Of a stretch of DNA of 64,000 nt, positions 5,481 to 29,536 are shown one piece after another. The notes below the pieces were generated by a model, which was not told the origin of the DNA, did no database searches, and was given only the letters and a program-made list of their open reading frames with translations. This DNA is from an uncultured Acidimicrobiia bacterium. Lineage in GTDB: Bacteria; Acidobacteriota; Terriglobia; Versatilivoradales; Versatilivoraceae. The translations under genes were made by a program, and so were the position numbers. Each line of letters opens with the position of its first letter. The first letter of the stretch is position 1. The stretch covers positions 837 through 64,836 of the forward strand of contig CAWBTP010000020.1 in assembly GCA_963791795.1 (NCBI GenBank). Direction: 5' to 3'.

Positions 5481-5945
5481 CCCGGACCACCACAGTTAGT
5501 TTCTACCTTATACCACACTTGGATCGCGCCGAGGTTCAGGGGCAGGCGCCGGGACGGAGTCGATGCGGGTGTTGTATTGGACGGAGCCCGCATCGTTCTC
5601 GCCTTCTGTTCGCTGCCGAAATTGACATTGCGGCTCCGCCTGCGTAGCATTCGAGCGTATCCTGCTCTTTCCACATTGCCGCAAAGAACTCAGCCCTCAA
5701 GCCGTGCCACAGAGCACGGCGACCGCTCTTCTCAGTTAAGGTCGCCGATTGGCAAGTGCGCACCTCCTCCAGCAACTTGGTGTCGTTCACTTCGGCAGTT
5801 GCGGTCAGAGCATCACGCTCCAGACTCAGCATGGATAACAGGTTCGGTCCAAATTGCCCGAAAACCAGAGATTTATCAGGTTATCAGGGCAAGTCAATCT
5901 GTTAATCAATGGTTCGGCTGCAGCACTGACGAGGAGGAAGTCACG

Positions 5946-6748
5946 TTGAATAATTCTTGCGCAGGGATCGGTGTTCGCACATCGCCCGAGCGGTTGTTAG
6001 CAAAGCCCGTTACGGTTGTGGGGGCGGCGGCGATTTTCTTCCTACTGACCATCTTGAGTCACAACAGCGCTGCGACCGCCGCGGAACTAAGGTCTTTACC
6101 TCTAGAGCGATCGCGACCGTGTTGGATAAGATCGGGCCTGAATTCGAGCGCACAAGCGGCCACAAGCTCAACGTGATCTCCGGCTTCAGCCCCAACTTCG
6201 TAAAGCAAATCAATGCCGGCGAGGTGTTCGACGTTGTCGTCGGTCCGCCGCGTACCATCGACGGGTTGATCGAAGATGGCAAGGTCACTGCCGACGCGGA
6301 CCAATCTCGTGCGCTCCGGACTTGGCGTGGCGATTCGCACCGGCGCACCCAAACCTGACATCACTTCGGTCGAAGCATTCAAGCGTGCGCTACTCAATGC
6401 CAAATCGATCGGATATCTCCGACCGGTGGGCAAACAACTGTTGATCGGCTTGGAATTGCGGATGCCATCAAGTCAAAAGTGACGATACCGGCTTCCGATA
6501 TCGTTTCCGAACTTGTTGCTAGGGGCGAACTCGAGCTTGGAGTGGTGGTCATCACGCAGATTTTAACCACACCTGGCGTCGAACTGGTCGGGCCACTTCC
6601 GGCGGAGATTCAGTCCTACGCCGTGTTCACTGCTGGCGTCAGCGGAAACTCAAATAGACCCGGGGCGGCGGGAGATCTGATCAAATTCCTTACCGGTCCA
6701 ACTGCCATCCCGGTCATCAAATCGCAGGGAATGAAACCGGCTGAATGA
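5946..6748 (+). pseudogene. periplasmic substrate-binding protein (ModA/PBP2-like), at least two frameshifts; first integron-like cassette
   Basis: A signal-peptide-like N-terminus (AAAIFFLLTILSHNSAATAAE) is followed, across three frames, by KVFTSRAIATVLDKIGPEFERTSGHKLNVISGFSPNFVKQINAGEVFDVVVG, then LVRSGLGVAIRTGAPKPDITSVEAF, then VVVITQILTTPGVELVGPLPAE. A TTG start follows a GAGGAGGAAG SD. Confidence 0.55.
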
Positions 6749-6814
6749 AGCTCGTGCTTCATGCGACCCACCGGACGCGCACTTTGCTGCGACTAACGTG
6801 AGCGAGCACATCAG

Positions 6815-6877
6815 GCCGAACGACGCATTCGACCGGACTCGCCGCAAGCGGCTCGCCGGTCAATTCGAACGTTCGGC
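6815..6877 (+). other. attC-like site (short class): GCCGAAC ... GTTCGGC
   Basis: 63-bp imperfect palindrome starting with RYYYAAC-like GCCGAAC and ending with GTTCGGC. An SD and the ATG of the next ORF follow 20 bp later. Confidence 0.55.
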
Positions 6878-6896
6878 GAGAGAAGGAAGAGTAAGA

Positions 6897-7290
6897 ATGA
6901 CCAGTGTTTCCCCAGGGACAGAGCGGATACGTCCATTCATGCCTGCAAAGGATTTCGAACTTTCGAAGCGTTTCGACGAAGCGCTCGGCTTCGAGAAGGT
7001 TTCGACAGCGAGGTCGCGATATTCAATGCCGGCTCGGGTGGGTTCATCTTGCAGCGCTACTTCCAGGAAGATTGGGCCAAGAACTTCATGATGAGCTGAC
7101 GGTTGACGATCTCGACATGTGGTGGGCGCATATCGAATCGCTCGATCTCACAAAGCGCTTCGGTGTGCCCCCGCCGAAACCTCCGGCTTTGCAGCCCGGG
7201 GCCTTCGTGTCGCATATGTGGGAATCCCTCCGGAGTCCTTTGCATATCGCACAGCGACGGAAAGAGGCGAGACAAGATCAATGAATGAGA
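6897..7290 (+). pseudogene. VOC (glyoxalase/bleomycin-resistance) family protein, frameshifted; cassette
   Basis: MTSVSPGTERIRPFMPAKDFELSKRFDEALGFEKV is in one frame. ...AIFNAGSGGFILQRYFQEDWAKNF and ...VDDLDMWWAHIESLDLTKRFGVPPPKPP are in other frames. Confidence 0.5.
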
Positions 7291-7303
7291 ATGACAGAGA
7301 TGC

Positions 7304-7364
7304 GCCGAACAAATCGCTGCAGCCGACGTGCGAGGACGCACGCGGCGCCGCAGAGGCGTTAGGC
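7304..7364 (+). other. attC-like site (short class): GCCGAAC ... GTTAGGC
   Basis: 61-bp hairpin (CGTGCG/CGCACG stem) bounded by GCCGAAC and GTTAGGC. The next ATG is 32 bp downstream. Confidence 0.6.
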
Positions 7365-7395
7365 CGCCATTGGTGAATAGGAAAGGTATCGCGTG

Positions 7396-7977
7396 ATGCG
7401 CAAACTGATCGTCTGCAACATTGTGTCGCTCGACGGCTTTTACTCCGGCCCGGGCGGGGACGTCATGGCCATGCCGTTCGACGACGGCTTCTCTGACTAC
7501 AACGCGGAACGGCTGCGGGCGGCCGACACCCTGCTGCTTGGGCGTACGTCGTACGAGGGCTTCCGGTCCTATTGGCCCGCGATCGCCGACGACGTGAACC
7601 AGCCGGCTGTGGAGCGCGAGATTTCGCGTCTCAACGCCGCCATCGAGAAGGTCGTGGTTTCGAACAGCCTGAAACCCAACGAGGTCGAGGGGTGGGGCCC
7701 GACCCGCGTCGTGCGGCGCGCGGATGCGCACGTAGAGGTCGCGGCACTCAAAGAGAGGCCGGGGCGGGAGATCCTGATGTTCGGCAGTCATCTCCTCTGG
7801 AACGACCTGCTTGCCAACGGCTTGGTGGACGAGCTGCACTTCATGATCGGTGCCGGCGTGGTCGGCGAGGGCGTGCGGGCGTTCGAGACCCGGCCGCCCG
7901 GCTCGCTCCGCCTGCTGGACACCCGGAAATTCGACGGCTCGAGCCTGCTCCTAGCCCGGTATCGCGTCGAGCGCTGA
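7396..7977 (+). CDS. dihydrofolate reductase family protein (RibD C-terminal domain type); cassette
   Basis: MRKLIVCNIVSLDGFYSGPGGD... is typical of the RibD_C/DHFR-like family. This call is from family resemblance, not FolA. Confidence 0.8.
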   Translation: MRKLIVCNIVSLDGFYSGPGGDVMAMPFDDGFSDYNAERLRAADTLLLGRTSYEGFRSYWPAIADDVNQPAVEREISRLNAAIEKVVVSNSLKPNEVEGWGPTRVVRRADAHVEVAALKERPGREILMFGSHLLWNDLLANGLVDELHFMIGAGVVGEGVRAFETRPPGSLRLLDTRKFDGSSLLLARYRVER

Positions 7978-7995: not shown

Positions 7996-8092
7996 GGCCG
8001 AACCAGACGCTGCACCTGACCGTCGGGGCATGACGGCTTTCCCAGGTTCATAGCTCCCCGTGCCCCGCCGGCAGGTGAGCTTGGTCGTTAGG
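7996..8092 (+). other. attC-like site: GCCGAAC ... GTTAGGC (97 bp)
   Basis: The inner stem CACCTGACCGTCGGGGC pairs with GCCCCGCCGGCAGGTG, and the outer core sites pair. The next ATG is 21 bp downstream with a GAGGAAG SD. Confidence 0.6.
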
Positions 8093-8112
8093 CTTCGACG
8101 ATTGAGGAAGAG

Positions 8113-8887
8113 AATGCACAAGAATTCGCGTAGACAGCCACCGAAGAGAATGCTCTTCAAGCCAGCCCAGGCGGACCCTGGCACTTATCTCGACGCACGT
8201 AGAGACCTTGTAGACCTTCTCTCTTATGCGGACGCCTATCACCACGCGGGGCGAAAACTGGCGGCTGCTCCACGACAAGGGGGTCTATTGCGGGATCTTG
8301 AAGCGCTCCCCATCCTTTTCCTGTATCGCCATGCTCTCGAACTCTACCTCAAATCTCTCGTCGTCTTTGGAACATGGCTTCACGAGGCCAAGGGGCTGCA
8401 TTCCCGACCCTTCGATACCCTCCTGAAGAGTCACCGGTTGGCCGCCTGTCTCCCCGAGCTGAAAAGACTATCCGAGGATGCAGGCTGGGGATGGGCCACA
8501 AGTGACGAAAGCCTAAGATCCTTCACAGATCTCGAGCGGTGCGTGAACGACTTAGACAAGGTCGATCAGCTGTCGTATGCATTTCGATATCCCGTGGACA
8601 AGCACGGGAGCCCTTCTTTGCAGAACAATTTGCCCTTTTCCTTGCCTCATTTCTGCGCAGAAATGGATCACGTCTTATCCGCACTACACGAGATCGCCCT
8701 TGGTCTCGATCTGGCAGCGCATTATGAAGGTGAAGCGCGGTTCTTCGAGTTGCGAAACAGAGGTGACCACGAAGCTAACCCGCAGCGTAACCCGACTGCC
8801 CAAAAAACGGGCGGCGGGTTCGCTGAAGTAGTTAGGCCCTCTACAAGTCCATGCTTACTCTTCCGGAAAAAGACATCGATGCCATAG
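8113..8887 (+). CDS. hypothetical protein with a HEPN-like Rx4-6H motif; cassette
   Basis: 258 aa. It contains ...SYAFRYPVDKHGSP (R-x5-H) and no other recognisable domain. Confidence 0.5.
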
Positions 8888-9249
8888 AGCAGATCCATCA
8901 TCGATGGATCGAAGCAGAACTGAGTGGCAACGCTCTGCAGGTGCTTCGTTTCTGCACCGATGACGTTCGGTGGATGGTTCCCGGCGCAGAGGTGCTGGTT
9001 GGCAAGGAAGCAGCTAGCCTGCTGGTCCACACCGGAACGGAAATTATAGATATACAAACGGCAGATCTAGAGGTATGTGGAAGTGGCGACGTCGCCTACA
9101 AGACAAGTAAGTACACGACCCGATTTGTGGCTGAGGGTACAGACAGCGAGCAGGTTGCGCGGGGCTCGCACTTATGGATCCTGCATAAGCAGGACGATGA
9201 GGAATGGGAAGTGGCATTAGTGACTTGGCAGCCATCATCAGGGATTTGA
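8851..9249 (+). CDS. DUF4440/SnoaL-like (NTF2 superfamily) protein
   Basis: 132 aa with ...IEQIHHRWIEAELSGNALQVLRFCTDDVRWMVPGAE... typical of DUF4440. Confidence 0.75.
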   Translation: MLTLPEKDIDAIEQIHHRWIEAELSGNALQVLRFCTDDVRWMVPGAEVLVGKEAASLLVHTGTEIIDIQTADLEVCGSGDVAYKTSKYTTRFVAEGTDSEQVARGSHLWILHKQDDEEWEVALVTWQPSSGI

Positions 9250-9360: not shown

Positions 9361-9499
9361 GGCCTAACCGCAGCGTGCACCCGACCGCACGCAACTGAAG
9401 ATCGGCGATCGCATCCGACTGCTGCGTATTCCGCAAGGCGATCTTGAGCAGCGCGCGCGAACGCGAGTTGCGCGCGGGTGCCGAAGACGCGGGTTGGAC
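9361..9499 (+). other. possible degenerate attC-like site: GCCTAAC ... GTTGGAC
   Basis: A canonical inverse core GCCTAAC is followed by hairpins (CGCAGC/GCTGCG) and a GTTRRRY-like GTTGGAC. There is a 220-bp ORF-poor gap afterwards. Confidence 0.25.
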
Positions 9500-9722: not shown

Positions 9723-10214
9723 ATGCCGAACAGCACCGCCACGACGAATGATCCGCCATCCGCCACGCCGGCGATGGATGCATTTGACGCGCGGAATCTG
9801 ACCCGGCCGGCGCCGATATTGCTTTCGTACTATGTGATCATCTCCCTGCTGTCCACCGTCGGGTTTGTTTTCATGATGCCGCCGCTTTTCTTTCGATATC
9901 ACACGCTTCACTTCAAGTTTGACGATGATGGGATTTCGCTTTCATGGGGAATTCTGTTTCGCAGGGAAATTCAGCTCACCTATCGGCGAATTCAGGACAT
10001 CCACATGACGCGAAACATTCTCCAGCGATGGATGGGCCTGGCGAATGTGGCGATTCAGACGGCCTCGGGAAGTGCCGAGGCGGAGATGATCATCGAAGGC
10101 GTTTTAGAAGCCGATGCACTGCGCGACTTCCTCTATAAGAAGATGCGCGGCGCGCGGGGGGATGATGGACAGACGGCGGGATGTTCCCAGCGATGCCGTT
10201 GGTGCTCCGGATGA
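9723..10214 (+). CDS. bacterial PH-domain (bPH_2, YdbS-like) membrane protein
   Basis: Two TM helices, then FRREIQLTYRRIQDIHMTRNILQRWMGLANVAIQTASGS... Confidence 0.7.
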   Translation: MPNSTATTNDPPSATPAMDAFDARNLTRPAPILLSYYVIISLLSTVGFVFMMPPLFFRYHTLHFKFDDDGISLSWGILFRREIQLTYRRIQDIHMTRNILQRWMGLANVAIQTASGSAEAEMIIEGVLEADALRDFLYKKMRGARGDDGQTAGCSQRCRWCSG

Positions 10215-10297
10215 TGAAGCGCTCGTCCTCTTGCGGCAGATTCGCGATGAAATTCGCGCGCTGGGCTCGGCCAGGAACCGCGACACGGGAGGCGCCA

Positions 10298-11047
10298 ATG
10301 AGCAAAGCAGTTGGTCGCGCCGCCGAGCAGGTGTATCGCGGCATCTGGCATGGACTGGTGAAGTGGTTCAAGGTCCCGGATGAGCCGCCAACGCTTCCCA
10401 CCAGCCCCGGCGAGCAGCTTGAGCGTTTCAAGCCGGCTGAAGGATTTCTCCGCTATCTCCTGCTGTTTTTCTGGATCGGGCTGGTCATCATTGACCTGAT
10501 ATTCCTTGGCATATGGTTTGCGAGTTTCGCGATCAGCCTGAGGCTGGGGTTGGCACTGTTGCCGGTGTTCCTCGCGGTCGCGGTCCTTCCCGACATCGTC
10601 GTCTACGTCGCGATCCATTTGCGATACGACACGACGTGGTATGTCCTGAGCGATCGAAGCGTCCGCATTCGGCGGGGGATCTGGACGATCACGGAAACGA
10701 CCATTACGTTTGAGAATGTTCAGGATGTGAAGATCGACCAGGGACCGATCCAGCGCGTTTACGGTATATCGGACATTGTGATCCAGACGGCCGGCGGCGG
10801 CGGTGCATCAGCGGAGCATCATGGCGCCGGCACGACAACGCATATCGGCCGAATCGAAGGCATCGCCGATGCAGCGCGAATTCGCGACCTGATCATGAAC
10901 CGCGTCCGCCGATCGCGCTCGGCGGGGCTGGGCGATGAACACAAGACCAATTCTGATCATCCTGCCACGCATATCACCTGTTGGACGGCAGGCCATTTGG
11001 AAATGCTTCGCGAAGTCCGGGTAGCACTGTCAGAACTTCGCTTGTGA
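10298..11047 (+). CDS. YdbT-like PH-domain membrane protein (start uncertain, 10181-10298)
   Basis: TM segments, then DRSVRIRRGIWTITETTITFENVQDVKIDQGPIQRVYGISDIVIQTAGGG (a bPH_2 repeat). Confidence 0.65.
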   Translation: MSKAVGRAAEQVYRGIWHGLVKWFKVPDEPPTLPTSPGEQLERFKPAEGFLRYLLLFFWIGLVIIDLIFLGIWFASFAISLRLGLALLPVFLAVAVLPDIVVYVAIHLRYDTTWYVLSDRSVRIRRGIWTITETTITFENVQDVKIDQGPIQRVYGISDIVIQTAGGGGASAEHHGAGTTTHIGRIEGIADAARIRDLIMNRVRRSRSAGLGDEHKTNSDHPATHITCWTAGHLEMLREVRVALSELRL

Positions 11048-11113
11048 GAACGCAGCAGTGCGAGCGCGACGGTGAGATCAAGATCGGCGGCACCGGCCCA
11101 ACCACTGCTTCCA

Positions 11114-11164
11114 GCCGACCCGCCGCCAAAAGCAGCGGCGGGCGGCTGAACCGTAACGTTCGGC
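11114..11164 (+). other. attC-like site (short class): GCCGACC hairpin ... GTTCGGC
   Basis: The hairpin CCGCCGCCAAAAGCAGCGGCGGGCGG is followed by GGCTGAACCGTAACGTTCGGC. It shares an AAAAGCAGCGGCG..GGCTGA consensus with sites at 20770 and 27721. Confidence 0.4.
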
Positions 11165-11360
11165 CGCACATCACTCGTTCATCCTTCACCAGCGCATAAA
11201 TCAGTCGCATGCAGTGCAAGTGTCCTCTCTTGCACAATACTGTGATGCTCTGGATGTGTTTTACATTTCAAGACTATTGCCTAAAATGATGCCTTCATGT
11301 GACCGCGTGCATGAGTCTGAAGCGGTGCATGGTTAGCCGGTAGGAACTGTTACAGGGGTA

Positions 11361-12320
11361 ATGCACATGAACAGCCGTTATCTTGTCGATCCTGAGCTTG
11401 TTGCGTTTCTCGACCTGATCCCTTCCACCTCACTCACGGCGGAAAGTCTGGCCACAAACCGGGCAAGAGCCGCCGCGATGGTAGCGAGCCTGTCGGTGCC
11501 CGACTATCCCAACCTTACAGTACGCGAACGGCACGTACCTGGTCCCGCAGGCGCGCCGGATGTCCGTATTTTGCTGTACCAACCGACGCTGACAACACAG
11601 TCGACAGCTGGCCTGCTTTGGCTCCACGGTGGCGGCTATGTCGGCGGCAATGTGGATCTTGAGGACGTACGCGCCCGGGCGATGGCAGCCGAACTTGGCT
11701 GCGTCATGGTGTCGGTGGACTACCGCTTGGCACCCGAGACACCCTTTCCCGGTCCCGTTGAGGATTGCTACGCCGTGCTGCGTTGGCTCCACGCCAATGC
11801 TGGAGAGCTGGGCGTCGACACCGGCCGACTGGCGGTTGGTGGTGGAAGCGCCGGTGGTGGTCTTGCTGCAGCGCTCGCGCTGCTTGCCCGCGACCGAGGT
11901 GAGATACCGCTCGTCTTTCAGGTGCTCAGCGCCCCCATGCTCGATGATCGCACCGTCACGCTCGAGCCGCCGCACCCGTACACCGGTGAATTCATCTGGA
12001 CGCGCGAATCAAACCGCTTCGGCTGGACAGCGCTGCTCGGCCAGGAGCCGGGGAGCGACGGCATATCGCCCTATGCGGCGGCCGCTCGAGCGGAAAATGT
12101 GGCGCACCTCCCACCCGCCTTCATCGCGGTGGGCGCACTCGATCTGTTTCTTGAGGAGAACATGGAGTATGCCCGGCGACTCATCCACGCTGGCGTGCCA
12201 ACAGAGCTTCATGTGTACCCAAGGGCGTACCATGGGTTTCAGATGGTTCCTTCTGCCTGGGTGACACAGGCTGTCGCACGCGAGCAGATCAGCGCTATTC
12301 GGCGGGCACTAAAGTTGTAA
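11361..12320 (+). CDS. alpha/beta hydrolase, esterase/lipase (HSL-like family)
   Basis: HGGGY oxyanion motif, GGSAGG nucleophile elbow, conserved His near the C-terminus. Confidence 0.85.
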   Translation: MHMNSRYLVDPELVAFLDLIPSTSLTAESLATNRARAAAMVASLSVPDYPNLTVRERHVPGPAGAPDVRILLYQPTLTTQSTAGLLWLHGGGYVGGNVDLEDVRARAMAAELGCVMVSVDYRLAPETPFPGPVEDCYAVLRWLHANAGELGVDTGRLAVGGGSAGGGLAAALALLARDRGEIPLVFQVLSAPMLDDRTVTLEPPHPYTGEFIWTRESNRFGWTALLGQEPGSDGISPYAAAARAENVAHLPPAFIAVGALDLFLEENMEYARRLIHAGVPTELHVYPRAYHGFQMVPSAWVTQAVAREQISAIRRALKL

Positions 12321-12591
12321 GGGAGGGGATCATCCATAGAAGTGAGCTGAGGTACGACATGTTCAACCGGCTGGCGCTATCGGCATCCTGATAAGTATCG
12401 GACAATGACTGACGAAACCTGCTTGAAACGCCTCGTTTTACCCAGCCTGATCCAACATCGGCTGCGGCCGAAGCGCAGGGCGATAAGCGGCGCGCGAGAT
12501 AAGATTGAGCCGCTAGGCGGCGCTTGATGCAAGTTACAGCGAGTGCTGAAGCAAGCCATCGCTGCTGAGCAACAGCGCGGTTCGGTGCGAG

Positions 12592-12718
12592 GCCCAACAA
12601 CCGGCTGAAGCTGACCCGGCTTACGCGTTCTTTTTGGAAACGGCAGCGAGACTTTCCAAGGTTCTCTCCGGCTCTCCAGCAGTGGGAAGCCGGGCAGCTT
12701 AGCCGAGAGACGTTAGGC
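12592..12718 (+). other. attC-like site (long class, 127 bp): GCCCAAC ... GTTAGGC
   Basis: Core-site pair, with a long imperfect stem (CCGGCTGAAGCTGACCCGGCTTACGCG pairs with CAGCAGTGGGAAGCCGGGCAGCTTAGCCG) and a central GGAAAC...TTTCC hairpin. The next ATG is at 12726. Confidence 0.7.
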
Positions 12719-12725
12719 ATCGCTT

Positions 12726-13376
12726 ATGGCAGCGTCGCAAGAGCTTCACCCCACGGCGGCAATGCTTCTTCCATACGAAGAGCGCCTCAAAGACGACATG
12801 TTGTACTTCAGAAAACTGGGCGTGAAGTACGAAGCAGACGCTCTCATTGACCTGCTAAAGCGCGAAAAGCCAAAGTCGGCCATGCCAGTCGCTTGCCACA
12901 GTTTGGCCGACCTGAACGCAAAGCAGGCTATTCCAGTCCTTAAGACACTAGCTGACTATCCAGTACAGGACGTAAAGGCAACGTCAGTGTTAGCGGTGGC
13001 TAGACTAGCCGGAAGCGACGAGACACCGTGGCTCGTTGAATGCCTTTCTAAGAAAAGGACGTTAAAGGGCTATGTGCTATGGGCTCTAGCCGCGGTCGGA
13101 GATCCTGCGGCATACGGGGCCGTGAAAACATGGTTTGAGAAGCATCTTCGGAAACTCGAGAGAAATCCGAATAGTGATTCGCTCGGAAATGTGGTGTTTG
13201 CCGTTGCGTACCTTGAACAAATGACAGAACACCGTCCCGAAGTTGTAGGGTTGCTTGATCGCTTCAAACTTGTGGCGCCAAAGCTCCCGCGAAACATTCC
13301 GTCAGAACTTGGCCACTTCACACGAACGTTTGCAGACTGGAAAAACAAGCATGGCCCGGGGGAGAGCGATGTCTAA
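12726..13376 (+). CDS. hypothetical protein (helical-repeat-like; lower GC than neighbours); cassette
   Basis: 216-aa intact ORF. Its stop codon TAA lies inside the inverse core GTCTAAC of the following attC-like site. Confidence 0.65.
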   Translation: MAASQELHPTAAMLLPYEERLKDDMLYFRKLGVKYEADALIDLLKREKPKSAMPVACHSLADLNAKQAIPVLKTLADYPVQDVKATSVLAVARLAGSDETPWLVECLSKKRTLKGYVLWALAAVGDPAAYGAVKTWFEKHLRKLERNPNSDSLGNVVFAVAYLEQMTEHRPEVVGLLDRFKLVAPKLPRNIPSELGHFTRTFADWKNKHGPGESDV

Positions 13377-13499
13377 CGAAAGGCTTGCAGCGAACCCAGG
13401 TTGACGCGTTTTTTTTGGAAACGGCGGTAGAATTCTTCCAAACACGCTCTGCGTCCCCAGCAGTGGGAGGCGGGGCGGCTTAGCTGGGAATCGTTAAGC
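13371..13499 (+). other. attC-like site (long class): GTCTAAC ... GTTAAGC
   Basis: Near-identical to the 12592 element. The stop codon is embedded in RYYYAAC. The next ATG is at 13523 with an SD. Confidence 0.7.
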
Positions 13500-13522
13500 G
13501 GACGAAAGGCAGAAGGACGTCG

Positions 13523-14380
13523 ATGACAGATCCAATCAGACGCAAGATACTGAAAACGGGAGCCGCGGCGACGGTGATGGCCGCTGCGCCGCGCGTGTTT
13601 GCGCAGCAGACTAGGAAAGGGGGAGCTGCCATGTCCTTCTACGAAAAAGGCGCCGTTCGCATCCACTATGAGGAGACCGGCTCCGGCTTCCCATTAATGC
13701 TCATCGCCGGCGGGGGGCTGAACTCGACGATCTCCGGCCTGACCAATCCCTTCAACCCGATCGAGGAGTTCAAAGGAGAGTACCGCTGCATCGCGTCGGA
13801 CCTGCGCAACGCCAACAGCGGCCAGTCCTCCGGCCCGCTCGAGATCGACCGGCCGTGGGATGCCTATACCGATGACCACCTCGGTCTGATGGATCACCTG
13901 GGCATCGAGAAGTTCATGGTGCTGGGCTTCTGCATTGGCGGCCCTTTCATTTGGAACCTCCTCCGGCGGGCGCCGAATCGTGTGGTCGCCGCCGTGCTGG
14001 CGCAGCCCAGCGGGTCCCGTCCGGAGATGCGCGATCTTTTCTACGACAACAATATGAAGGGTTGGGGTCCGGTGCTGGTAAAGCGCCGGCCCGAGATCTC
14101 GATGGAGATGGTCGACAAGTTTCTGACCAAGATGTACCGCACCAACCCCGATTTCGTCTTCACCGTGACACGCGACTTCGTGCGCAACTGCCAGACGCCA
14201 GTACTGATCCTCCCGGACGATATTCCGGCGCATCCGTACGCTGTCGCCATGGAGGCCGCAATGCTCGCGCCGAAGGCCGAAGTGAGCATGTTCCCGTGGA
14301 AGGAGCCCAAAGAACGGATTCCATTGGCGGTACGCCAGATACGTTCCTTCCTCCGGGCGCATCGGCCTGCCCCTGCTTAG
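13523..14380 (+). CDS. alpha/beta-fold hydrolase with twin-arginine signal peptide
   Basis: N-terminal RRKILKTGAAATVMAAAPRVFA, then an alpha/beta hydrolase core. Confidence 0.8.
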   Translation: MTDPIRRKILKTGAAATVMAAAPRVFAQQTRKGGAAMSFYEKGAVRIHYEETGSGFPLMLIAGGGLNSTISGLTNPFNPIEEFKGEYRCIASDLRNANSGQSSGPLEIDRPWDAYTDDHLGLMDHLGIEKFMVLGFCIGGPFIWNLLRRAPNRVVAAVLAQPSGSRPEMRDLFYDNNMKGWGPVLVKRRPEISMEMVDKFLTKMYRTNPDFVFTVTRDFVRNCQTPVLILPDDIPAHPYAVAMEAAMLAPKAEVSMFPWKEPKERIPLAVRQIRSFLRAHRPAPA

Positions 14381-20110: not shown

Positions 20111-20128
20111 TGAACCTGTCCCAAGCTG

Positions 20129-20742: not shown

Positions 20743-20769
20743 CGATTCCTTCAAGTTCCCTAAGGGGAG

Positions 20770-20835
20770 GCCGAACCCTGCGCTGCAGCCGACGCCGCCG
20801 AAAAACAGCGGGGGGCTGATGCCTGACCGTTAGGC
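20770..20835 (+). other. attC-like site (short class): GCCGAAC ... GTTAGGC
   Basis: 66 bp. A GTG start with an SD follows 17 bp later. Confidence 0.5.
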
Positions 20836-20851
20836 GGAAAGAGGCCCAATC

Positions 20852-21037: not shown

Positions 21038-21199
21038 GCACCGTGCGCTGGAGGGCGAACTGCCGGCACTGGAGAATGGGTGGCGTGAGGCGGAGGAAAT
21101 CGCTGGAATCGCCAATTCGCTTGCGTGCCGGCACGCGTCGAAGAATTCCTCGCGCGTCACCGCCGTGAATTCCCGAGAAAGCGATCAAGAGCCTTCCGA

Positions 21200-22465
21200 A
21201 TGCCGAATAAGTTGGTATCTTCGATTTCCGTGGCGCAACCAAGCCGACTTTCCGCTATCGGTCCAGCGATTCTGCTGACCGCGACCAGCGTGGGCGCGGG
21301 CGATATCCTCACGGGCAGCCTCGCCGGCGCGGAGGCTGGCATGGCGGCGCTCTGGGCGGTCCCTGCCGGCGTCATCCTCAAATGGACGCTCACCGAAGGC
21401 ATCGCCCGCTGGCAGATGGCGACCGGCACGACGCTGCTCGAAGGGTGGGTGACACGGCTCGGGCGCTGGATTCAGTGGGTGTTCTTTGGCTATCTGCTGC
21501 TGTTCTCGCTGGTGACCGGCGGCATGCTTGCGAGCGCTTGCGGAGTTGCGGGTGCCGCGCTGATTCCGCTCGGCGAACCGCAGACTTCGCGTTTCGTTTG
21601 GGGCGCGATGCACTCGCTGGCCGGCCTTGCGCTGATCTGGATCGGCGGATACGCGCTCCTGAAGAGGATCTTGGCGGGCTGCGTCGGCGCCATGTTCGTC
21701 ACGGTCACGCTGACTGCGTTCCTGCTCGCGCCGGATTGGGCGGCTGTTGGCCGCGGGCTGACTCCTTCGCTCCCGCCAGAGGGCGCAGGTTGGATCATCG
21801 GGCTAATCGGCGCGATTGGCGGCACGATGGCGCTGATCAGCTACGGCTACTGGATCCGCGAGGAGGGCCGTACGGGCGAAGAAGGGTTGCGAGCCTGCCG
21901 CTTTGAGCTGGTTCTGTCTTATGCCGTGATCGGGCTCTTTGGGCTCGCGGTAGTGATCATCGGCTCGCGCACGTCGGTTCGCGGTCAGGGAAATCAGCTC
22001 GCGCTGCTGCTCGCAGATCAGCTCGCAACAAATCTCGGACAGAGCGGCAAATGGATCTTCCTCGTTGGATTCTGGGCGGCGGTGTTCTCGGCGCTGCTTG
22101 GCGTATGGCAGAGTCTGCCTTACCTGTTCACCGATTTCCTGCTGCTGCGGAAGGGCTCTGGAGTGGCTTCGTTGCCGCAGGGAGCGGCGGAGCGATCGCG
22201 ATCTTACCGCGGCTATCTCGCTTGCCTCGCGACCGTACCGCTGTTTCTGTTGCGTTGGCCGGTGCAGGAGTTACAGCTCGCGTTCGGACTGACGGGTGCG
22301 ATGCTTCTGCCGTTGCTCGCACTGACGTTGCTGATCATGAATAATCGCACCGCGTGGGTCGGCGACCGCTTGCGTGCGACCCTTGCATTGAATCTGGTGC
22401 TCGCAGCGGCGCTCGGATTCTTCGCATTCACCGCCGTGCGCGAGGTGATGCGCCTTGCCGGCTGA
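21200..22465 (+). CDS. mntH: Nramp-family divalent metal transporter
   Basis: Multi-TM protein with GPAILLTATSVGAGDILTGS and MPNKLVSS... start. It has Nramp consensus regions. Confidence 0.8.
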   Translation: MPNKLVSSISVAQPSRLSAIGPAILLTATSVGAGDILTGSLAGAEAGMAALWAVPAGVILKWTLTEGIARWQMATGTTLLEGWVTRLGRWIQWVFFGYLLLFSLVTGGMLASACGVAGAALIPLGEPQTSRFVWGAMHSLAGLALIWIGGYALLKRILAGCVGAMFVTVTLTAFLLAPDWAAVGRGLTPSLPPEGAGWIIGLIGAIGGTMALISYGYWIREEGRTGEEGLRACRFELVLSYAVIGLFGLAVVIIGSRTSVRGQGNQLALLLADQLATNLGQSGKWIFLVGFWAAVFSALLGVWQSLPYLFTDFLLLRKGSGVASLPQGAAERSRSYRGYLACLATVPLFLLRWPVQELQLAFGLTGAMLLPLLALTLLIMNNRTAWVGDRLRATLALNLVLAAALGFFAFTAVREVMRLAG

Positions 22466-23423
22466 GGAGACTGATGAAATGCCCAACATCGTGATACCCG
22501 ACGACTATCCAGTCGTCATGGGATCGAGTCCATCATTCCTGAAGTGGCGACAAAGCACGCCGGCCACATACTTCGATACGCTGCCCGGATCGGAAGACGG
22601 GCTGCTCGCGCGCATCCGCGACGCCGAGATCGTGATCAACGTTCGCTCGTCGACCCGATTCCCCGAGAGCGTTTTCGCAGCGTGTCCCAAGCTGAAGCTG
22701 CTGTCGCTATGGGGCACGGGCACGGACAACGTCGACCTCGCCGCAGCGAAGCGCCACCGCGTCACGGTGACGAACACGCCGGGAGTATCAGCGGCCTCGA
22801 TCGCGGAGCATTCCCTGATGCTGGCGCTCGCCGTCGCCCGCCGTGTAGTCGAGATTCACAACGGCGTTGTGGCGGGCGGTTGGCCGCGTGGCCGGTCTGT
22901 AGAGCTTCAGGGCAAGACGCTGGGCGTGATCGGACTCGGTGCGATCGGACGGAGATTCGCGCGTCTCGGACAGGGAATCGGCATGCGAGTGATTGCATGG
23001 ACGATGCATCCGAACCCTGCGCTCGGGTTCGAATTGGTGGAGCTCGACGATCTGCTGGGCAGGAGCGACGTAATCAGTCTTCACTTGCGGCTATCACCAC
23101 AGACCGCAGGTTTTCTCGGGCGCGATCAGTTTGCTTTGATGAAGCCCGGTGCGATTCTGATCAACACGGCGCGTGGACCGATCGTCGATGAGGCTGCTTT
23201 GCTCGACGCTCTCAGCGAGCGCCGACTCGCGGGTGCGGGCCTCGATGTCTTCGACGTCGAGCCTTTACCCGCAGGCCATCCGCTGACCAAGCTCGACAAC
23301 GTGGTCCTGACTTCGCACTGTGCGGGAATCACGCCGGAGGCGCTCGAAGCCGGCCTTGCGCTGGCGATCGAAAACGTCGTCGGCTTCCTGAACGGCAATC
23401 CAACGAACGTGGTTACACTGTAA
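22455..23423 (+). CDS. D-isomer-specific 2-hydroxyacid dehydrogenase (glyoxylate/hydroxypyruvate reductase family)
   Basis: GVIGLGAIGRRFARLG NAD-binding motif and catalytic R/E/H region. Confidence 0.9.
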   Translation: MPAEETDEMPNIVIPDDYPVVMGSSPSFLKWRQSTPATYFDTLPGSEDGLLARIRDAEIVINVRSSTRFPESVFAACPKLKLLSLWGTGTDNVDLAAAKRHRVTVTNTPGVSAASIAEHSLMLALAVARRVVEIHNGVVAGGWPRGRSVELQGKTLGVIGLGAIGRRFARLGQGIGMRVIAWTMHPNPALGFELVELDDLLGRSDVISLHLRLSPQTAGFLGRDQFALMKPGAILINTARGPIVDEAALLDALSERRLAGAGLDVFDVEPLPAGHPLTKLDNVVLTSHCAGITPEALEAGLALAIENVVGFLNGNPTNVVTL

Positions 23424-23505: not shown

Positions 23506-23633
23506 GCTTAACAAGCCGGCTGAAGCTGGCCCGGTTTATGCATTTTGTTTGGAAACGCCGCAGGAACTCTCCAAAGTTCCCTCCGACTCCCCGGCAGTGG
23601 GAAACCGGGCAGCTTAGCCGTGAGGCGTTAGGA
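23506..23633 (+). other. attC-like site (long class): GCTTAAC ... GTTAGGA
   Basis: Fifth copy of the 127-bp element. The next ATG is at 23670 with an AAGGAGA SD. Confidence 0.65.
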
Positions 23634-24137: not shown

Positions 24138-24169
24138 TTTGACGGGGTCTTGAGGGTCCCGGCCGCTCC

Positions 24170-24229
24170 TAACCAACTGGCTCGAGCCGACCGCGAAAAG
24201 CACCCGGCGGCTCATCGGGGCCATTAGGC
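24170..24229 (+). other. possible short attC-like site: CCTAAC ... ATTAGGC
   Basis: Matches the short-class internal consensus (GAGCCGACCGCGAAAAGCACCCGGCGGCTCA). A second weak candidate lies at ~24393-24453 (GCTAAC...CTAGGC). Confidence 0.3.
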
Positions 24230-24518
24230 ATCTTGTTGCGGAAACCACGATGGATCTCGCACTTCGAGTGAACACACAGGGAGGTACGACAGTCGTCCGA
24301 CTCCGGATGAAGGATGGCATCCACTCTCGCAGATCTCTGGCATGCTTCTACATCTCGGGTTCAAAGTCTCCGGCCAGTACCTTCCCTGAAGAGGCTAACC
24401 CGGTGCTCCAGCCGGTGCCCGCCAAGAGCTGCGGGCACGCTCAGCTCTGATCGCTAGGCGACTGAGCGCACACCGAGAATTTCCACGCAGTGAGCAACCA
24501 TCGAACTAGGAGAACAAC

Positions 24519-25292
24519 ATGAAAATCGTCGTCATCGGCGGCAGCGGACTTATCGGAAAAAAGCTCGTAAAGAATCTTCGTCAGCAGGGCCACGAGGTGG
24601 TGGCGGCATCACCATCATCGGGTATCAACGCCGTCACTGGCGAGGGACTGGCGCAAGCGCTTGCGGGCGCTCAGGTGGTCGTCGATGTGGCGAACTCGCC
24701 GTCGTTCGAAGACAAGGCCGTTTTGGAGTTCTTCGAAACGTCGGGTCGGAATCTCCTGGCCGAGGAAGCAGCCGCAGGCGTCGGACATCACGTGGCGCTG
24801 TCGGTCGTCGGCACCGACCGCCTGCTCGCCAGTGGTTACTTCCGCGCGAAGATGGCCCAGGAGAATCTGATCAAGACTTCCCCGGTCCCATACACGATCG
24901 TCCGCGCCACGCAGTTCTTCGAGTTCGTGGCCAGCATCGCCCAATCGGCAACCGAGGGGCAGACGGTTCGGTTGCCGCCAGCGCTGATGCAGCCCATCGT
25001 GTCGGATGACGTCGCCGCCGTCATGGCTGAGGTCGCGGTCGAGGAACCGTTGAACGGCACGATCGAACTGGCGGGTCCCGAACCGATCCGTCTCGACGAA
25101 CTCGTTCGGAAATTCCTGAGCGCAAACCGAGACGCGCGGACGGTGACCACGGACGCACGCGCGGGTTACTTCGGCACGCCGGTGAACGATCAAAGTCTCA
25201 CCCCCGGCGATCACCCGCGCCTCGGCCCGACGCGTTTCGAGGACTGGCTCAACCGCACCATACCTCAGAGAACGTCAAAGGCGACATCGTAG
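24519..25292 (+). CDS. NmrA-like/atypical SDR NAD(P)-binding oxidoreductase
   Basis: MKIVVIGGSGLIGKKLV Rossmann start. Confidence 0.85.
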   Translation: MKIVVIGGSGLIGKKLVKNLRQQGHEVVAASPSSGINAVTGEGLAQALAGAQVVVDVANSPSFEDKAVLEFFETSGRNLLAEEAAAGVGHHVALSVVGTDRLLASGYFRAKMAQENLIKTSPVPYTIVRATQFFEFVASIAQSATEGQTVRLPPALMQPIVSDDVAAVMAEVAVEEPLNGTIELAGPEPIRLDELVRKFLSANRDARTVTTDARAGYFGTPVNDQSLTPGDHPRLGPTRFEDWLNRTIPQRTSKATS

Positions 25293-25381
25293 ATTGTTCC
25301 TGCCAAACCAGCGGCTGAAGGTGCCCCGCCTCCTACTGTGGGTGATGACGAGGATAACTCTAGCAGGCTCAACAGGACTCT

Positions 25382-26707
25382 ATGCGCGACTTCCATGTCT
25401 TGCTTACGATACTTTTGCTCTTCCGACCGGCCTTGGCGCAAGAACGGGCAGCCACGGACTCAGCTACCAAAGGTCGAATCGCGGTGCGAGCCGCGCGGCT
25501 GATCAATGGCACGGGCCAGGCCGTGATACAGAATCCCGTCGTGTTGATTGAAGGGGCCCGCATTGCTGCGGTCGGTTCCGGTCTGGCGATTCCCGCTGGC
25601 ACGAAAGTGATCGACTTGGGGCCAGCAACTCTTCTCCCGGGCCTCATCGACTGCCACACTCACCTTACCGGGGGCGACCCTCGCAACTACTACGAGCGAC
25701 TCTTCCGCCTCAGCCCAATTGATCATGCTGTGGCCGCGCACGTGTATGCGCGACGCACGCTGGAAGCGGGGTTCACGACGGTACGAGACGTGGGATCAGG
25801 CGAGTTTGTCGATGTCGCGTTGCGGAAAGCGATCGACGCGGGTCTCGTCGCAGGCCCGCGGGTGCAGGCTGCCACTCTTGCCATTGGTGCGACAGGAGGC
25901 CACGCCGACTTGACCGGCTTCTCTCCTTACATCGAGTTTAAGGAGTTCTCGGGTCTAGCGGATGGGGTTGATGAGATCAGAAAGGCTGTGCGGCTCAGAG
26001 TGAAAAATGGCGCAGACCTCATCAAGGTCATGGCCACCGCAGGAGTTCTAACCGAAGAGGCTTCCGCCGGGGCTCCCCAATACAGCCAGGAGGAGCTGAA
26101 TGTCCTCGTCGCCGAAGCCGCGATGTGGGGCAAGAAAGTGGCCGCACATGCCCACGGGGCCGAGGGTATTAAGCGAGCCGTCCGAGCCGGTGTGGCATCC
26201 ATCGAGCACGGCAGCCTGATCGACGACGAAGGTATTCGCCTCATGAAGCAGCAAGGAACCTACCTGGTCGCTGATATCTACAACGACGACTATATCCTCG
26301 CTGAATTTGCGCGCCTTCAGTATCCGCAGACGATCCTCGAGAAGGAGAAGGAAATTGGTCGACTTCAGCGAGAGAACTTCCAGCGCGCTGTGCGGGCGGG
26401 CGTCAAGATAGCGTTCGGCACCGATGCTGGAGTCTACCCGCACGGACAGAATGGAAAGCAGTTCGCGCACATGGTTAAGTGGGGGCTCGCACCGATGCAG
26501 GCCATTCAGGCCGCGACATTCAACTCAGCGGATCTATTAGGCTGGGGCGACAAGGTGGGAACGGTTGCCCCCGGGTTTCTCGCGGACCTCATCGCTGTCG
26601 CTGGAGACCCGCTGCAGGACATAACGGAACTGGAGCGGGTCCAGTTCGTGATGAAGGGTGGCGTCATCTACAAGGGGAGTTCCGCAGATCACCCCCTTAG
26701 ACCATGA
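25382..26707 (+). CDS. secreted amidohydrolase-family metal-dependent hydrolase
   Basis: Signal peptide, HTH metal-binding motif (LIDCHTHLTGG) and conserved amidohydrolase motifs. Confidence 0.85.
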   Translation: MRDFHVLLTILLLFRPALAQERAATDSATKGRIAVRAARLINGTGQAVIQNPVVLIEGARIAAVGSGLAIPAGTKVIDLGPATLLPGLIDCHTHLTGGDPRNYYERLFRLSPIDHAVAAHVYARRTLEAGFTTVRDVGSGEFVDVALRKAIDAGLVAGPRVQAATLAIGATGGHADLTGFSPYIEFKEFSGLADGVDEIRKAVRLRVKNGADLIKVMATAGVLTEEASAGAPQYSQEELNVLVAEAAMWGKKVAAHAHGAEGIKRAVRAGVASIEHGSLIDDEGIRLMKQQGTYLVADIYNDDYILAEFARLQYPQTILEKEKEIGRLQRENFQRAVRAGVKIAFGTDAGVYPHGQNGKQFAHMVKWGLAPMQAIQAATFNSADLLGWGDKVGTVAPGFLADLIAVAGDPLQDITELERVQFVMKGGVIYKGSSADHPLRP

Positions 26708-26755
26708 TTGTGAGAATCGATCCGTTCAGTTCTTCAGGCGTTATACCTCAGGCCG

Positions 26756-27043: not shown

Positions 27044-27110
27044 CCCATCCAAGCACCGCGCGCAGACGCACGCGCGGGTTGGTGACTTAATTTTAGTTGG
27101 ACTGAATAAC

Positions 27111-27710
27111 ATGGACACATCCACCCGAGTTCCGACGCTCGAAGAGTTCTTGACCTTCTGCCAGGCAGCGTGCGAGTTCCTCATCCGCGAGTATGGGTTC
27201 GTGCGACTGCCCTCACCCTTGGAGTACAACCAACACAGCGTATGCTTTCGAAAGGGTGATTTCGGCGTTGACGTCTATGGTGAGAACTACGGCGAGACGG
27301 CATCGTGCGATCTCGTGCGAGGTGGGGATCGGTTGTACCTCGGCCTGTTTGTGCCCGTAGCACAACGCGAGGCGCCAAGGCGTGAGGGGCCTCGGCCCGG
27401 GCAGCTCGCTCAGCTTCAAGACATTGCCACCCGGCTGAAGCTTTATGCGGCGGACTTCTTGCGCGGCGATTCCAACCGCTTTGACTCGGCTCTCGTGGAA
27501 TGGAGGCCCGTCGCTCAACCTCGCCAAGTGACGGCAGCGCAATGCCTGGAACGCCAGCGACAACAAGCTGTCACGGCCGCGGGCCACGCAAGCGGGCGGA
27601 CTATGCTGCAGTCGTGCGCCTGCTTCAGCCACACGCAGAAGCGTTGTCACCGCACCAGCGGCGGATGCTTGAGGTTGCGCGCAACCGGTTGGCGGACGAA
27701 GCGGGCTAGC
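27111..27710 (+). CDS. hypothetical protein, possible C-terminal frameshift
   Basis: MDTSTRVPTLEEFLTFCQAACEFLIREYGFV... The C-terminal part is better in the frame of 27500-27709, which ends just before the next attC-like site. Confidence 0.4.
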
Positions 27711-27720
27711 ACCGCATCCA

Positions 27721-27774
27721 GCCGAGCCACGTCACCAAAAGCAGCGGCGTGCGGCTGATGCCTGATCGTTAGCC
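27721..27774 (+). other. attC-like site (short class): GCCGAGC ... GTTAGCC
   Basis: AAAAGCAGCGGCGTGCGGCTGA consensus. Lies immediately after the stop codon. Confidence 0.4.
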
Positions 27775-27880
27775 GGACGAGTCAGGGGAGATCGTGCGCA
27801 GATGGTGGGGCGCTCCGACAGAGCCTTCGATGTATGATATCCATCGCGAACACTGAGCAGTCTCCGAAAAGATAAGAAAG

Positions 27881-29305
27881 ATGCAGGCGCCCTCCCAGCC
27901 AACGCGCGCGCTCCTCAGTATTCTCATTGTTGCGGTCTCCGCCATCGCGTTTCTCGTGTCGACCGGCGTGGGTGTCGTGTGGCCTCTTGCATGGCTCGCG
28001 CCGATTCCGGTTCTCGTGCTTTCCGTTCACCGTTCCTGGCGAGCAGCCGCCATTGTTGCCTTCACCGCGTCGCTGCTCGGTGACCTCACTCTGGCTCGCA
28101 CATACGGGCCGGGCGCCGTGCTCATCTTCGGAATTCCTCCGGCGATGGCATTTGCCGCAGCGACGCTGGCAGCCCGCGCCGCCGCGCGACGAATGGCGGC
28201 TTGGCTGGCGGTCTTCGCGTTTCCAACGGTGCTGACGTCCTACGAGTTCCTGTTCTCGCTCATCTCGCCCAATGGCACCTTCTGGAGCCTTGGCTACTCG
28301 CAAACCGATTTTCTCCCGCTGCTGCAAGTCGTCTCGCTGACGGGCCTCTGGGGCGTCGTTTTTGTCCTGACGCTCCTCCCTTCGGCAGCCGCGCTCGCCC
28401 TGTATCGCCGCTCCATGTCAACGTTGATGCCGGCGCTCGCGATTCTGCTGCTGGTTCTGGGTTATGGAACATGGCGTTTGCTTCGCGCTCCCGGGCCATC
28501 CATCGTGCGTGCTGGGCTGGCCGCAACGGACCGAGGCCTTCCCAGCGTCGATCACCACCGATCCAGCGATGGCGCTCAGCGTGGCCGCCGCGTACGCGGA
28601 CCGCGTCGCTCACTTGGCAGCCCGGGGCGCGCAGATTATCGTGTTCCCAGAAAAAATGGTCGGAGTAACGTCAGACAGTGCGGACGCCGTGGTGAAGTTC
28701 TCAGCGACGCCGCTCGCGCGGCACAGGCCACGGTCATCGCCGGCCTGAGCCGCAACGGAGTCCAGCCCAGACGCAACATCGCCCTGGTCATCTCTCAAGA
28801 CGGCACGCTCGTGCTGCAGTACGAGAAGCGTTACCTGGTCCCGATGATCGAAACGACCTTCGCCAGCGGCAACGCGCTCGGTGTGTTCGCCGGTCCGGAG
28901 GCACAGTGGGGTGTCGCCATCTGCAAGGACCTCGACTTCCCAGCTTGGTCACGCGCCTACGGCCGGCGCGGCGTACGCTTTTTGGCAGTGCCCGCATGGG
29001 ACTTTGTCCGGGACGCCCGCATGCACTCGCGGATGGCGGTCATGCGTGGCGTCGAGAACGGATTTGCCATCGCTCGTTCGGCCCAAGAGGGTCTCGTGAC
29101 GGTCAGCGATGCCTACGGCCGCATCCTGGTTGAACAATCCAGCGCTCGCGATCCGATGGAGGTTCAGACCATTGCAGCCGGCCCTGGAGCGACGTTCTAC
29201 ACCCACTACGGAGACTGGTTCGGTTGGGTAAACGTCCTGATGATGGGCGGACTCGTCGCGGGAACGATCTGGCCAAATCGTACGGATTCGAAGAGCTCCG
29301 GCTAA
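27881..29305 (+). pseudogene. apolipoprotein N-acyltransferase (Lnt)-like: N-terminal TM domain plus CN-hydrolase domain, two frameshifts
   Basis: The N-terminal multi-TM region and the C-terminal nitrilase-like region (VAICKDLDF...) are in one frame. The middle part (AQIIVFPEKMVG...) is in another frame (28464-28748). Confidence 0.55.
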
Positions 29306-29441
29306 CGCTCGGCTGTACCCGACGGCCGGTGGGTTGTGTCAGGCTCGGACGAGTTCATGAAGCCCCTCGAAGCGCCACCGATCGCCTTGGCGCAAGAGCC
29401 AATGGTAGAGGAACATCAATCACGCTCCTGATGTGCAGCCG

Positions 29442-29507
29442 GGCCAACCCGCCGCGCAGCCGACGTTGCCGAAAGACAGCAGCGCGGCTGATGCTTGGCC
29501 GTTGGGC
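29442..29507 (+). other. attC-like site (short class): GCCAAC ... GTTGGGC
   Basis: 66 bp with a central hairpin. The next ATG (~29537) follows an AAGGAA SD. Confidence 0.5.
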
Positions 29508-29536
29508 GCCCTGGGGTGCTGCCTTGAAGGAACCAA

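Follow-up and report, generated by a model that had tools for sequence, protein, structure and literature searches.

An integrase-less array of attC-terminated gene cassettes beside aroC in an uncultured soil Acidobacteriota bacterium

We analysed a 64,000-nt stretch of DNA (the window; contig CAWBTP010000020.1 of assembly GCA_963791795.1, positions 837-64,836, forward strand) from an uncultured soil bacterium of the Acidobacteriota (GTDB Terriglobia; Versatilivoradales; Versatilivoraceae) that carries the GenBank label Acidimicrobiia bacterium; coordinates below are window positions. Between aroC, encoding chorismate synthase (4240-5484), and a riboswitch-controlled gene for an SPFH protein, the region from 5.9 to 29.5 kb is very probably an array of about 17-18 integron gene cassettes that end in attC sites and are not accompanied by an integrase. 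We are similarly confident that each cassette comprises one or a few mostly promoterless + strand genes and then an attC site. The genes with Pfam support between 5.9 and 30.4 kb are all encoded on the + strand, as an earlier note on this DNA had said of every recognisable gene in the array; its further statement that an attC follows every gene does not hold, since approximately 28 genes share the 17-18 sites and some genes have no site of their own. The sites are 47-138 nt long, each lies 3' of a + strand open reading frame (ORF), and for at least eight of them the distance to the next start codon is 8-40 nt.

The sites were detected with two covariance models. An IntI1 query, verified by its 100% identity to the plasmid gene, was followed by the use of 12 class 1 integron loci as the source of reference attC sites. 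The first model (R1) was trained on ten of these (aadB, aadA2, psp, cmlA1, blaVIM-2, aac(6')-Ib4, estX, dfrA17, arr-3 and aac(6')-29a) and was given as structure only the R''/R' and L''/L' pairs and the bulge. The second (R2) was built from the seven best window matches of R1 in alignment, and is not fully independent of R1 because these seven sites were chosen and aligned by it. With filters off and over the whole window, R1 gave 17 matches at E <= 10, 15 of them within 6.8-29.5 kb, which represent 13 distinct + strand sites and two weaker reverse-strand echoes. Seven of the 13 sites reached E <= 0.04 and all 13 reached E <= 6; outside the array there were only two matches, both on the - strand with E about 8. 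The best R1 matches were 6815-6877 (E 1.6e-6), 7997-8093 (1.9e-5), 12592-12718 (8.4e-4) and 11096-11164 (2.2e-3). R2 recognised 16 + strand sites in the window at E < 0.05; together with a weak match at 13371-13499 (E 7.2) this makes 17, to which one truncated site is added. The weak site was accepted because it matches by blastn the family of 127-bp attC sites described below (76-86% over 51-95 nt of their 3' half).

In the reverse direction, the 13 top matches of R2 in six class 1 loci (75 kb) were true attC sites on the cassette strand, including two that were absent from training (those of the dfrA12 cassette and of a DUF1010, gcuF-type, cassette). With filters off, the best match of the same model in the remaining 40 kb of the window had E 0.16, and in 1.48 Mb of related-genome loci, searched less sensitively with default filters, it had one match at E < 0.1. 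An Rfam scan of the window at gathering thresholds returned no attC match, its sole match being a c-di-AMP riboswitch. Two simpler scans were dropped: a literal search for RYYYAAC...GTTRRRY gave about ten pairs per strand, mostly noise, and was uninformative because many sites carry G or C at the fourth core position, and a scan for generic AAC/GTT hairpins was just as noisy, on either strand. No model supported the candidates at 26619-26746 and 25292-25382, and they were rejected. Among the nine site ends listed in the earlier note, eight correspond to sites recovered here (6877, 7364, 8092/3, 12718, 13499, 14490, 23633 and 29507), and eight of the nine spacers also have the appearance of attC when read directly; the ninth, at 15641, was recognised by neither R1 nor R2 and is at most a decayed site. 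Two palindromes of the form GCCCAAC...GTTGGGC occur outside the array (33737-33808 and 55807-55928, one of them inside a herA-like gene; E 0.16 and 4.1) and are probably due to chance.

The features of the array are described here from left to right; all lie on the + strand, and the genes were annotated with Pfam. The left boundary is a core GTTCGGC (5911-5917) that behaves as an attI-like or attG-derived junction with the crossover after G5911. The first cassette encodes an SBP_bac_11 solute-binding protein (5957-6748), split by a frameshift into two ORFs, and is followed by an attC of 63 nt (6815-6877; R1 34.7 bits) with a bulged bottom-strand hairpin. Then come an attC of 61 nt found by R1 and R2 (7304-7364), the 5' half of which is nearly identical to that of the cmlA1 attC, and a RibD_C gene (DHFR-like; 7393-7977, Pfam E 1.1e-17) with an attC of 97 nt (7997-8093; R1 and R2). 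A decayed gene without a Pfam match precedes a 65-nt site (8773-8837; R2 E 0.0036, R1 E 1.3), a DUF4440/SnoaL-like gene (8851-9249) precedes a 138-nt site (9362-9499; R2 E 0.029), and two bacterial PH-domain genes (9723-11047) precede a 69-nt site (11096-11164; R2 E 4.4e-11). An Abhydrolase_3 gene (11361-12320) is followed by a member of the 127-bp family (12592-12718; R2 E 9.8e-10) that is 89% identical to an attC beside the integrase gene of soil contig L195. The next gene, with HEAT repeats (12726-13376), has its stop codon inside the R'' core GTCTAAC (13371-13377) of the following site, as the earlier note had observed; this site is the diverged family member 13371-13499.

Further along, an Abhydrolase_1 gene (13523-14380) has a short site of 47 nt (14444-14490; R2 E 0.046) that R1 matches weakly on both strands (E 0.051 on -, 0.38 on +). 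A 2.6-kb cassette with a trypsin-like gene (14527-15389) and a lactonase gene (15650-16891) ends in a 127-bp family site (17003-17130; R2 E 1.5e-5). An S9 peptidase gene (17360-19393) is directly followed by a truncated attC (19403-19449; R2 E 9.5, and E 0.44 for its copy in the sister strain described below), in which R'' is lost and L' and R' (GTTAGGC) are intact, and the 3' end of which is near-identical to that of 7997-8093. Another member of the 127-bp family (20130-20256; R2 E 0.0021) follows a UCP028175-like gene broken by a 7-nt deletion. A toxin-antitoxin cassette (20309-20742) contains the gene of a HicA toxin (20530-20742; HicA_toxin E 2.6e-11) and a small upstream gene that, from a weak UPF0150 match (E 0.11), may encode a HicB-like antitoxin; its attC is 66 nt long (20770-20835; R2 E 9.9e-7). 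A 2.8-kb cassette with Nramp (21125-22465) and 2-hydroxyacid dehydrogenase (22455-23423) genes ends in the last 127-bp family site (23506-23633; R2 E 0.024, R1 E 1.6). It is succeeded by a DUF3237 gene with a 63-nt site (24167-24229; R1 E 0.083, R2 E 0.0035), a 230-bp cassette with a 66-aa ORF and a 67-nt site (24393-24459; R2 E 0.0046), and a 3.3-kb cassette with NAD-binding and amidohydrolase genes and genes without assigned function, which ends in a 71-nt site (27704-27774; R1 E 0.038, R2 E 2.2e-8). The last attC, of 66 nt (29442-29507; R1 E 0.0077, R2 E 3.9e-11), lies behind an Lnt-like CN-hydrolase gene (27881-29305), and an EamA-family transporter gene (29537-30424) follows it without an attC of its own.

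Most cargo labels proposed from the letters alone were recovered (HicA, the DHFR-like fold of RibD_C, alpha/beta hydrolases and bacterial PH domains), whereas the VOC/glyoxalase and HEPN labels were not reproduced with Pfam. Several cassette genes had also been called decayed. Their frameshifts are confirmed and are not assembly noise, because the 12.2 kb that are common to an independent assembly differ by only two indels. At the Lnt-like gene, a 95.6% identical copy in soil contig L162 (13930-14075 region) is directly followed by a 127-bp-family attC. In the window (29299-29325) the stop codon of this gene lies within an R''/L''-like start, GGCTAAC GCTCG GCTGTACCCGAC, and the complete 66-nt attC comes 120 nt later, which suggests that the attC behind the gene may have been rearranged or replaced.

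The sites share the architecture of attC. In a 15-site alignment, 89.4% of the cells in paired columns were paired (83.8% for the R''/R' helix and 93.9% for the L helix), a figure to be read with the caveat that fitting the alignment to the model works in favour of the structure. Double-compensatory cells numbered 28 against 8.6 in shuffles (none of 500 shuffles reached 28), compensatory changes occurred in six of the nine L''/L' pairs, and pairing collapsed to 14-41% when the partners were slid by one to three columns. The R''/R' cores are complementary, with AAC and GTT nearly invariant and the fourth position often outside the strict IUPAC pattern (GCCGAAC/GTTCGGC). As in class 1 sites, model positions 15 and 17 are separated by an unpaired column; L'' has a bulged base, and the bottom strands, when folded as DNA, gave long hairpins with bulges in the '' arm. 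The first site, 6815-6877, reads GCCGAAC-GACGCA-TTCGACCGG...CCGGTCAA-TTCGAAC-GTTCGGC, and the extra C in its TT-C-GACCGG is positioned like the C in TT-C-AAGCC of the aadA2 attC. R2 scored the + strand 30-45 bits above the - strand (56.9 versus 19.3 bits for 6815-6877); because of this strong asymmetry the sites can be said to be oriented, always along the direction of the genes. Checks of the kind that the earlier note had proposed, namely a covariance search, here with our own models, folding of the bottom strands and alignment of the sites, yielded R1 and R2 matches, bulged hairpins and R''/R' pairing.

The resemblance to attC sites of class 1 cassettes (aadA2, aadB, cmlA1, blaVIM-2 and others) extends from the R''-spacer-L''...L'-spacer-R' layout and the position of the bulge to an L'' consensus, GCTGCAGCCGAC, that is common to window sites, cmlA1 and VIM-2, and the covariance models recognise each other's sites. 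The window differs in its cargo, host and chromosomal context, and its R'' core is often GCCGAAC, outside strict RYYYAAC.

Comparison with two other contigs showed where cassette content changes. An exact-protein look-up led to a 146.9-kb ENA contig of a sister strain (L013). It is 92% identical to the left flank of the window up to position 5916 and shares 12.2 kb of cassettes with window 11157-23368 at 98.85% identity; the segment between these shared parts is wholly different (5.2 kb in the window, 2.9 kb in the sister strain). At the left break, the two are alike to ...CAATGGTTCG (GTTCG|G, 5911-5917) and unrelated thereafter, with a different first cassette in each, and the leading genes specific to the sister strain carry attC sites of their own. 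On the right, the break lies at (C)GTTCGGC, which is the R' of 11096-11164. In a soil metagenome contig (L166), the Nramp cassette occurs at 97% identity behind a different cassette, and identity begins at CGTTAGGC, which is the R' of 20770-20835. Three independent breakpoints (5911, 11158 and 20829) therefore lie at (C)G|TT, as placed by sequence comparison. The flank is more diverged from the sister strain than the shared cassettes are, by a factor of four or more.

The elements are attC-type sites, and it is precisely at the crossover points that close relatives diverge in their cassette content. The identification follows from the cross-recognition with class 1 sites in both directions, the R and L boxes with a bulge, the covariation in the stems, the restriction to a single strand at the 3' ends of genes, and the strain differences at the G|TT of R'. 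The integron-like reading in the earlier note was borne out in the models, structure, strandedness and breakpoints alike. A reading of the same palindromes as repetitive extragenic palindrome (REP) or miniature inverted-repeat transposable element (MITE)-like repeats, or as transcription terminators, unrelated to integrons, could appeal to their intergenic position, their GC-rich imperfect symmetry and the 127-bp sequence that five of them share. We regard it as highly improbable: they occur on a single strand and nowhere but in the array, with none in the other 40 kb; their sequences are heterogeneous yet have a common attC architecture with covariation; they match clinical attC sites in both directions and coincide with strain breakpoints at G|TT; related arrays in metagenomes run in one direction per contig; and terminator-like sites are not enriched (17 versus 15.9 expected). 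The MITE/REP pattern that the earlier note had named as refuting its claim was not seen in the window, the copies being confined to a single strand, to the array and to gene boundaries.

No integrase gene was found beside the array. Searches of the 64-kb window by tblastn with IntI1 and with the integrases of soil contigs L195 and L182 gave a best E of 0.02, for a match within the herA-like gene, and Pfam detected no tyrosine-recombinase domain in the ORFs scanned, which comprised eight at 0.7-6.4 kb, the main ones on the + strand of the array and, at 30-64 kb, most of those with at least 150 aa. The locus has 17-18 sites where an attC-site cluster without an integron integrase (CALIN) is defined by at least two clustered same-strand attC and the absence of intI for about 4 kb around them (10 kb in a stricter form); no intI was found over 5.9 kb upstream and 34 kb downstream, and the sister strain adds about 1.5 kb of upstream backbone. 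The element is a CALIN between aroC and the riboswitch-controlled SPFH gene and not a complete integron, because the 64 kb contain no intI and the island is flanked by backbone genes to its left and right.

The limits of this island were drawn from relatives without the array. In a metagenome-assembled genome (MAG) labelled Acidobacteria (L015, AroC 83% identical to that of the sister strain) and in L199-L201, a herA-like gene adjoins aroC at a distance of a few hundred bp, and in L198 the order is herA, SPFH, riboswitch, approximately 0.3 kb and aroC. Homology to L198 resumes only at window 30493. As the backbone genes are adjacent in these array-less relatives, about 5.5-30.49 kb is a lineage-specific island of 25 kb, in which the array is preceded by a 430-bp leader and followed by the EamA gene. 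An attempt to reconstruct the empty site from L198 and L199 failed, the intergenic regions being too diverged, and among 80 GTDB relatives no aroC-adjacent array was found, with one lone attC-like match in L014.

The leader, between the start of aroC and the first cassette (5485-5917, +), is 92% conserved in the sister strain and absent from L198, L199 and L015. It contains a promoter-like TTGACA-17-TAGCAT (5622-5650) that points into the array; this is a consensus match only, and the total count of the promoter scan was not above chance. Proximal cassettes would be expressed from such a leader promoter. Ahead of the first cassette, candidates for an attI and a cassette promoter would be the GTTCGGC junction (5911-5917), which behaves as the insertion or boundary point, and this promoter-like site; attI sequences are specific to their integrase. 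No remnant of IntI was detected in the leader (tblastn E > 0.05 with a tiny database; hhalign probability 0.25% against a profile of 25 IntI sequences). A minus-strand ORF at 5536-5832 (KLLEEVR...TLTEK...W) recalls the IntI N-terminus; it was not significant by tblastn and was rejected by the same hhalign comparison.

On the upstream side, an insertion sequence (IS) element (493-2522) with a DDE_Tnp_1_6/DUF772 transposase gene (693-2252, - strand) lies 3.4 kb from the array and is absent from the sister strain. The flanking 2-hydroxyacid dehydrogenase gene (2594-3623) and aroC are both pseudogenised, with 7 and 21 indel events, respectively, relative to intact copies in the sister strain.

By analogy with known integrons, the bottom strand of each attC would fold into a hairpin with pairing of R''/R' and of L''/L' and with bulged bases as marks of the strand; IntI, a tyrosine recombinase, would cut this hairpin between G and TT of GTTRRRY, and cassettes would leave as circles and re-insert. 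Since no integrase adjoins the array, gain and loss of cassettes must rely on an IntI that is encoded elsewhere in the genome or brought by a mobile element, and such an integrase would act on the array in trans. The hicAB cassette would stabilise the array. Only tentatively do we propose that the 5911-5917 junction beside aroC is a working insertion point, attI-like or attG-derived, that is loaded by an integrase encoded elsewhere. If so, the array, though it lacks an integrase, would be a live store of cassettes that is still growing instead of a fossil, and the different leading cassettes of the sister strains would be natural evidence for it.

The different leading cassettes in the two strains fit insertion at this boundary. 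Several points weigh against this and against the broader reading of the locus. Different leading cassettes could be the outcome of different deletions from a larger ancestral array. The flank, at 92% identity (8% divergence), is far more diverged than the shared cassettes at 98.85% (1.1%), and recombination between lineages may therefore have shaped the pattern. The intI search covers the 64-kb window; the attC models are small (10 and 7 sequences), which makes their E-values rough; the sites 13371-13499, 14444-14490 and 19403-19449 are weak or degenerate; and four long cassettes (2.6-3.3 kb, two to four genes each) have no detectable internal site.

As to the origin of the array, it is quite possible, if short of probable, that it is a detached part of a complete sedentary chromosomal integron whose integrase and attI were moved elsewhere in the genome by a rearrangement or lost by deletion at the aroC side. 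Degraded integrons are considered a frequent source of CALINs (PMC4889954), and the IS element upstream, the decay of aroC and the dehydrogenase gene in the window strain and the island-specific leader of unassigned origin before the first cassette are all compatible with such an event. The IS element is, however, absent from the sister strain, which has the same integrase-less arrangement, the leader holds no IntI remnant, and conserved backbone genes stand on both sides of the island. Slightly less likely is that the array was seeded by insertion of cassettes at a non-canonical genomic site (attG or secondary, G|WT-like) upstream of aroC and then grew by further insertions, catalysed in trans throughout, at the hybrid junction. 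This would account for a left boundary that consists of no more than a GTTCGGC core and is preceded by neither an attC nor a recognisable attI structure, for the two strains differing right after the same G, and for the lack of intI or a pseudogene of it nearby; insertion at attG has been shown experimentally and was proposed as a source of integrase-less cassettes (bioRxiv 10.1101/2022.09.11.507474). That proposal concerns mainly single cassettes and small CALINs, whereas 17-18 sites are present here, and with an island-specific leader and the relatives' flanks too diverged, the true empty site cannot be reconstructed.

Among known systems, the array is most directly compared with CALINs (PMC4889954; PMC9024848), which likewise consist of at least two same-strand chromosomal attC sites with no intI nearby, have cargo that is mostly miscellaneous or of unassigned function without resistance genes, and in 95% of cases have no recognisable intI pseudogene. 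It differs from them in size, CALINs having a mean of about 6 sites and more than 10 in only 6.6% of cases (2016 survey, PMC4889954), and in the leading-edge turnover seen against the sister strain. With sedentary chromosomal integrons (the Vibrio superintegron, Xanthomonas) it shares a long one-directional array, homogeneous lineage-typical attC sites (the 127-bp family, like the Vibrio cholerae repeats), a toxin-antitoxin cassette, decayed cassettes and strain-variable content; the window array has no adjacent platform of intI, attI and cassette promoter (Pc), and its homogeneous family accounts for only five of 17 sites. Toxin-antitoxin cassettes in arrays are known (PMC13108822). With the attG insertions and single attC sites lacking integron-integrase (SALINs) of Loot et al. 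(bioRxiv 10.1101/2022.09.11.507474) it has in common chromosomal cassettes away from an integron platform and a minimal G|TT junction, but it is a multi-cassette array and not a single cassette, and an attG origin would be an inference only.

The 127-bp family links the array to soil integrons that have an integrase. The other sites of the window are short and diverse. A 27-nt degenerate pattern of the family matched 104 soil metagenome contigs, and each of the eight scanned with R2 was a one-direction array mixing long and short sites. In L195 the array lies behind an ORF that reaches 467.9 bits on the integron integrase model TIGR02249 (cutoff 265), is 54% identical to IntI1 and has the same direction as the cassettes, whereas in L182 a partial intI points away from them. 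The integrase of L195 has thousands of metagenome relatives, some in MAGs labelled Terriglobia, Latescibacterota and Binatia. The attC sites of L195 and L182 are 75-89% identical to those of the window (79-89% to the best-matching window site) and likewise mix long and short sites in one-directional arrays; the difference is that an integrase adjoins their cassettes and none lies beside the window array. In two further soil contigs (L117 5288-7384 and L096 514-2607), a Xer-like tyrosine recombinase of 285 aa, which stays under the cutoff for integron integrases, is encoded immediately before an IS91-family transposase, and this pair lies upstream of one-directional attC arrays of the 127-bp family.

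The earlier note overstated the rarity of cassette arrays in Acidobacteria: the literature offers an attC model specific to the taxon Acidobacteria (PMC8352920), Terriglobia MAGs carry annotated integron integrases, and CALINs number in the thousands in RefSeq (2961; Neron et al. 2022, PMC9024848). With CALINs and acidobacterial attC sites both on record, the only mildly unusual point is the turnover at the leading edge without a neighbouring integrase. The array leaves general knowledge of integrons unchanged. It adds a well-resolved and fairly large cassette array from an uncultured soil Acidobacteriota lineage, ties an attC family widespread in soil to integrase-bearing and integrase-less arrays alike, and offers a natural two-strain comparison that bears on whether CALINs are dead remnants or still served in trans.

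Further observations concern the surroundings of the island. Its right neighbour is a c-di-AMP riboswitch (30495-30740; Rfam RF00379, 86.4 bits), preceded by a perfect TTGACA-16-TATAAT and followed by a gene for a 713-aa SPFH/Band_7 protein (30930-33071); this unit is backbone, being present in the array-less L198. A short repeat (TTCCCGCGAAAGCGGGAATC / GGGAATGAC) occurs to the left of aroC (3655-3735) and just before the herA-like gene (33243-33269), is also found in the sister strain (27/27 and 25/25 matches) and may be a REP-like element. AroC itself is of a 416-aa type (L014-L093) with 67-85% identity across MAGs labelled Acidobacteriota, Chloroflexota (Caldilineaceae), Latescibacterota, Acidimicrobiia and Gemmatimonas, unusually high across phyla, which could reflect horizontal transfer or mislabelled bins. 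Finally, in a contig of ERZ1305449 (AroC 89% identical), four small genes of unassigned function lie beside aroC at the position of the array and point away from it; they may constitute a second, smaller cassette array at the same locus.

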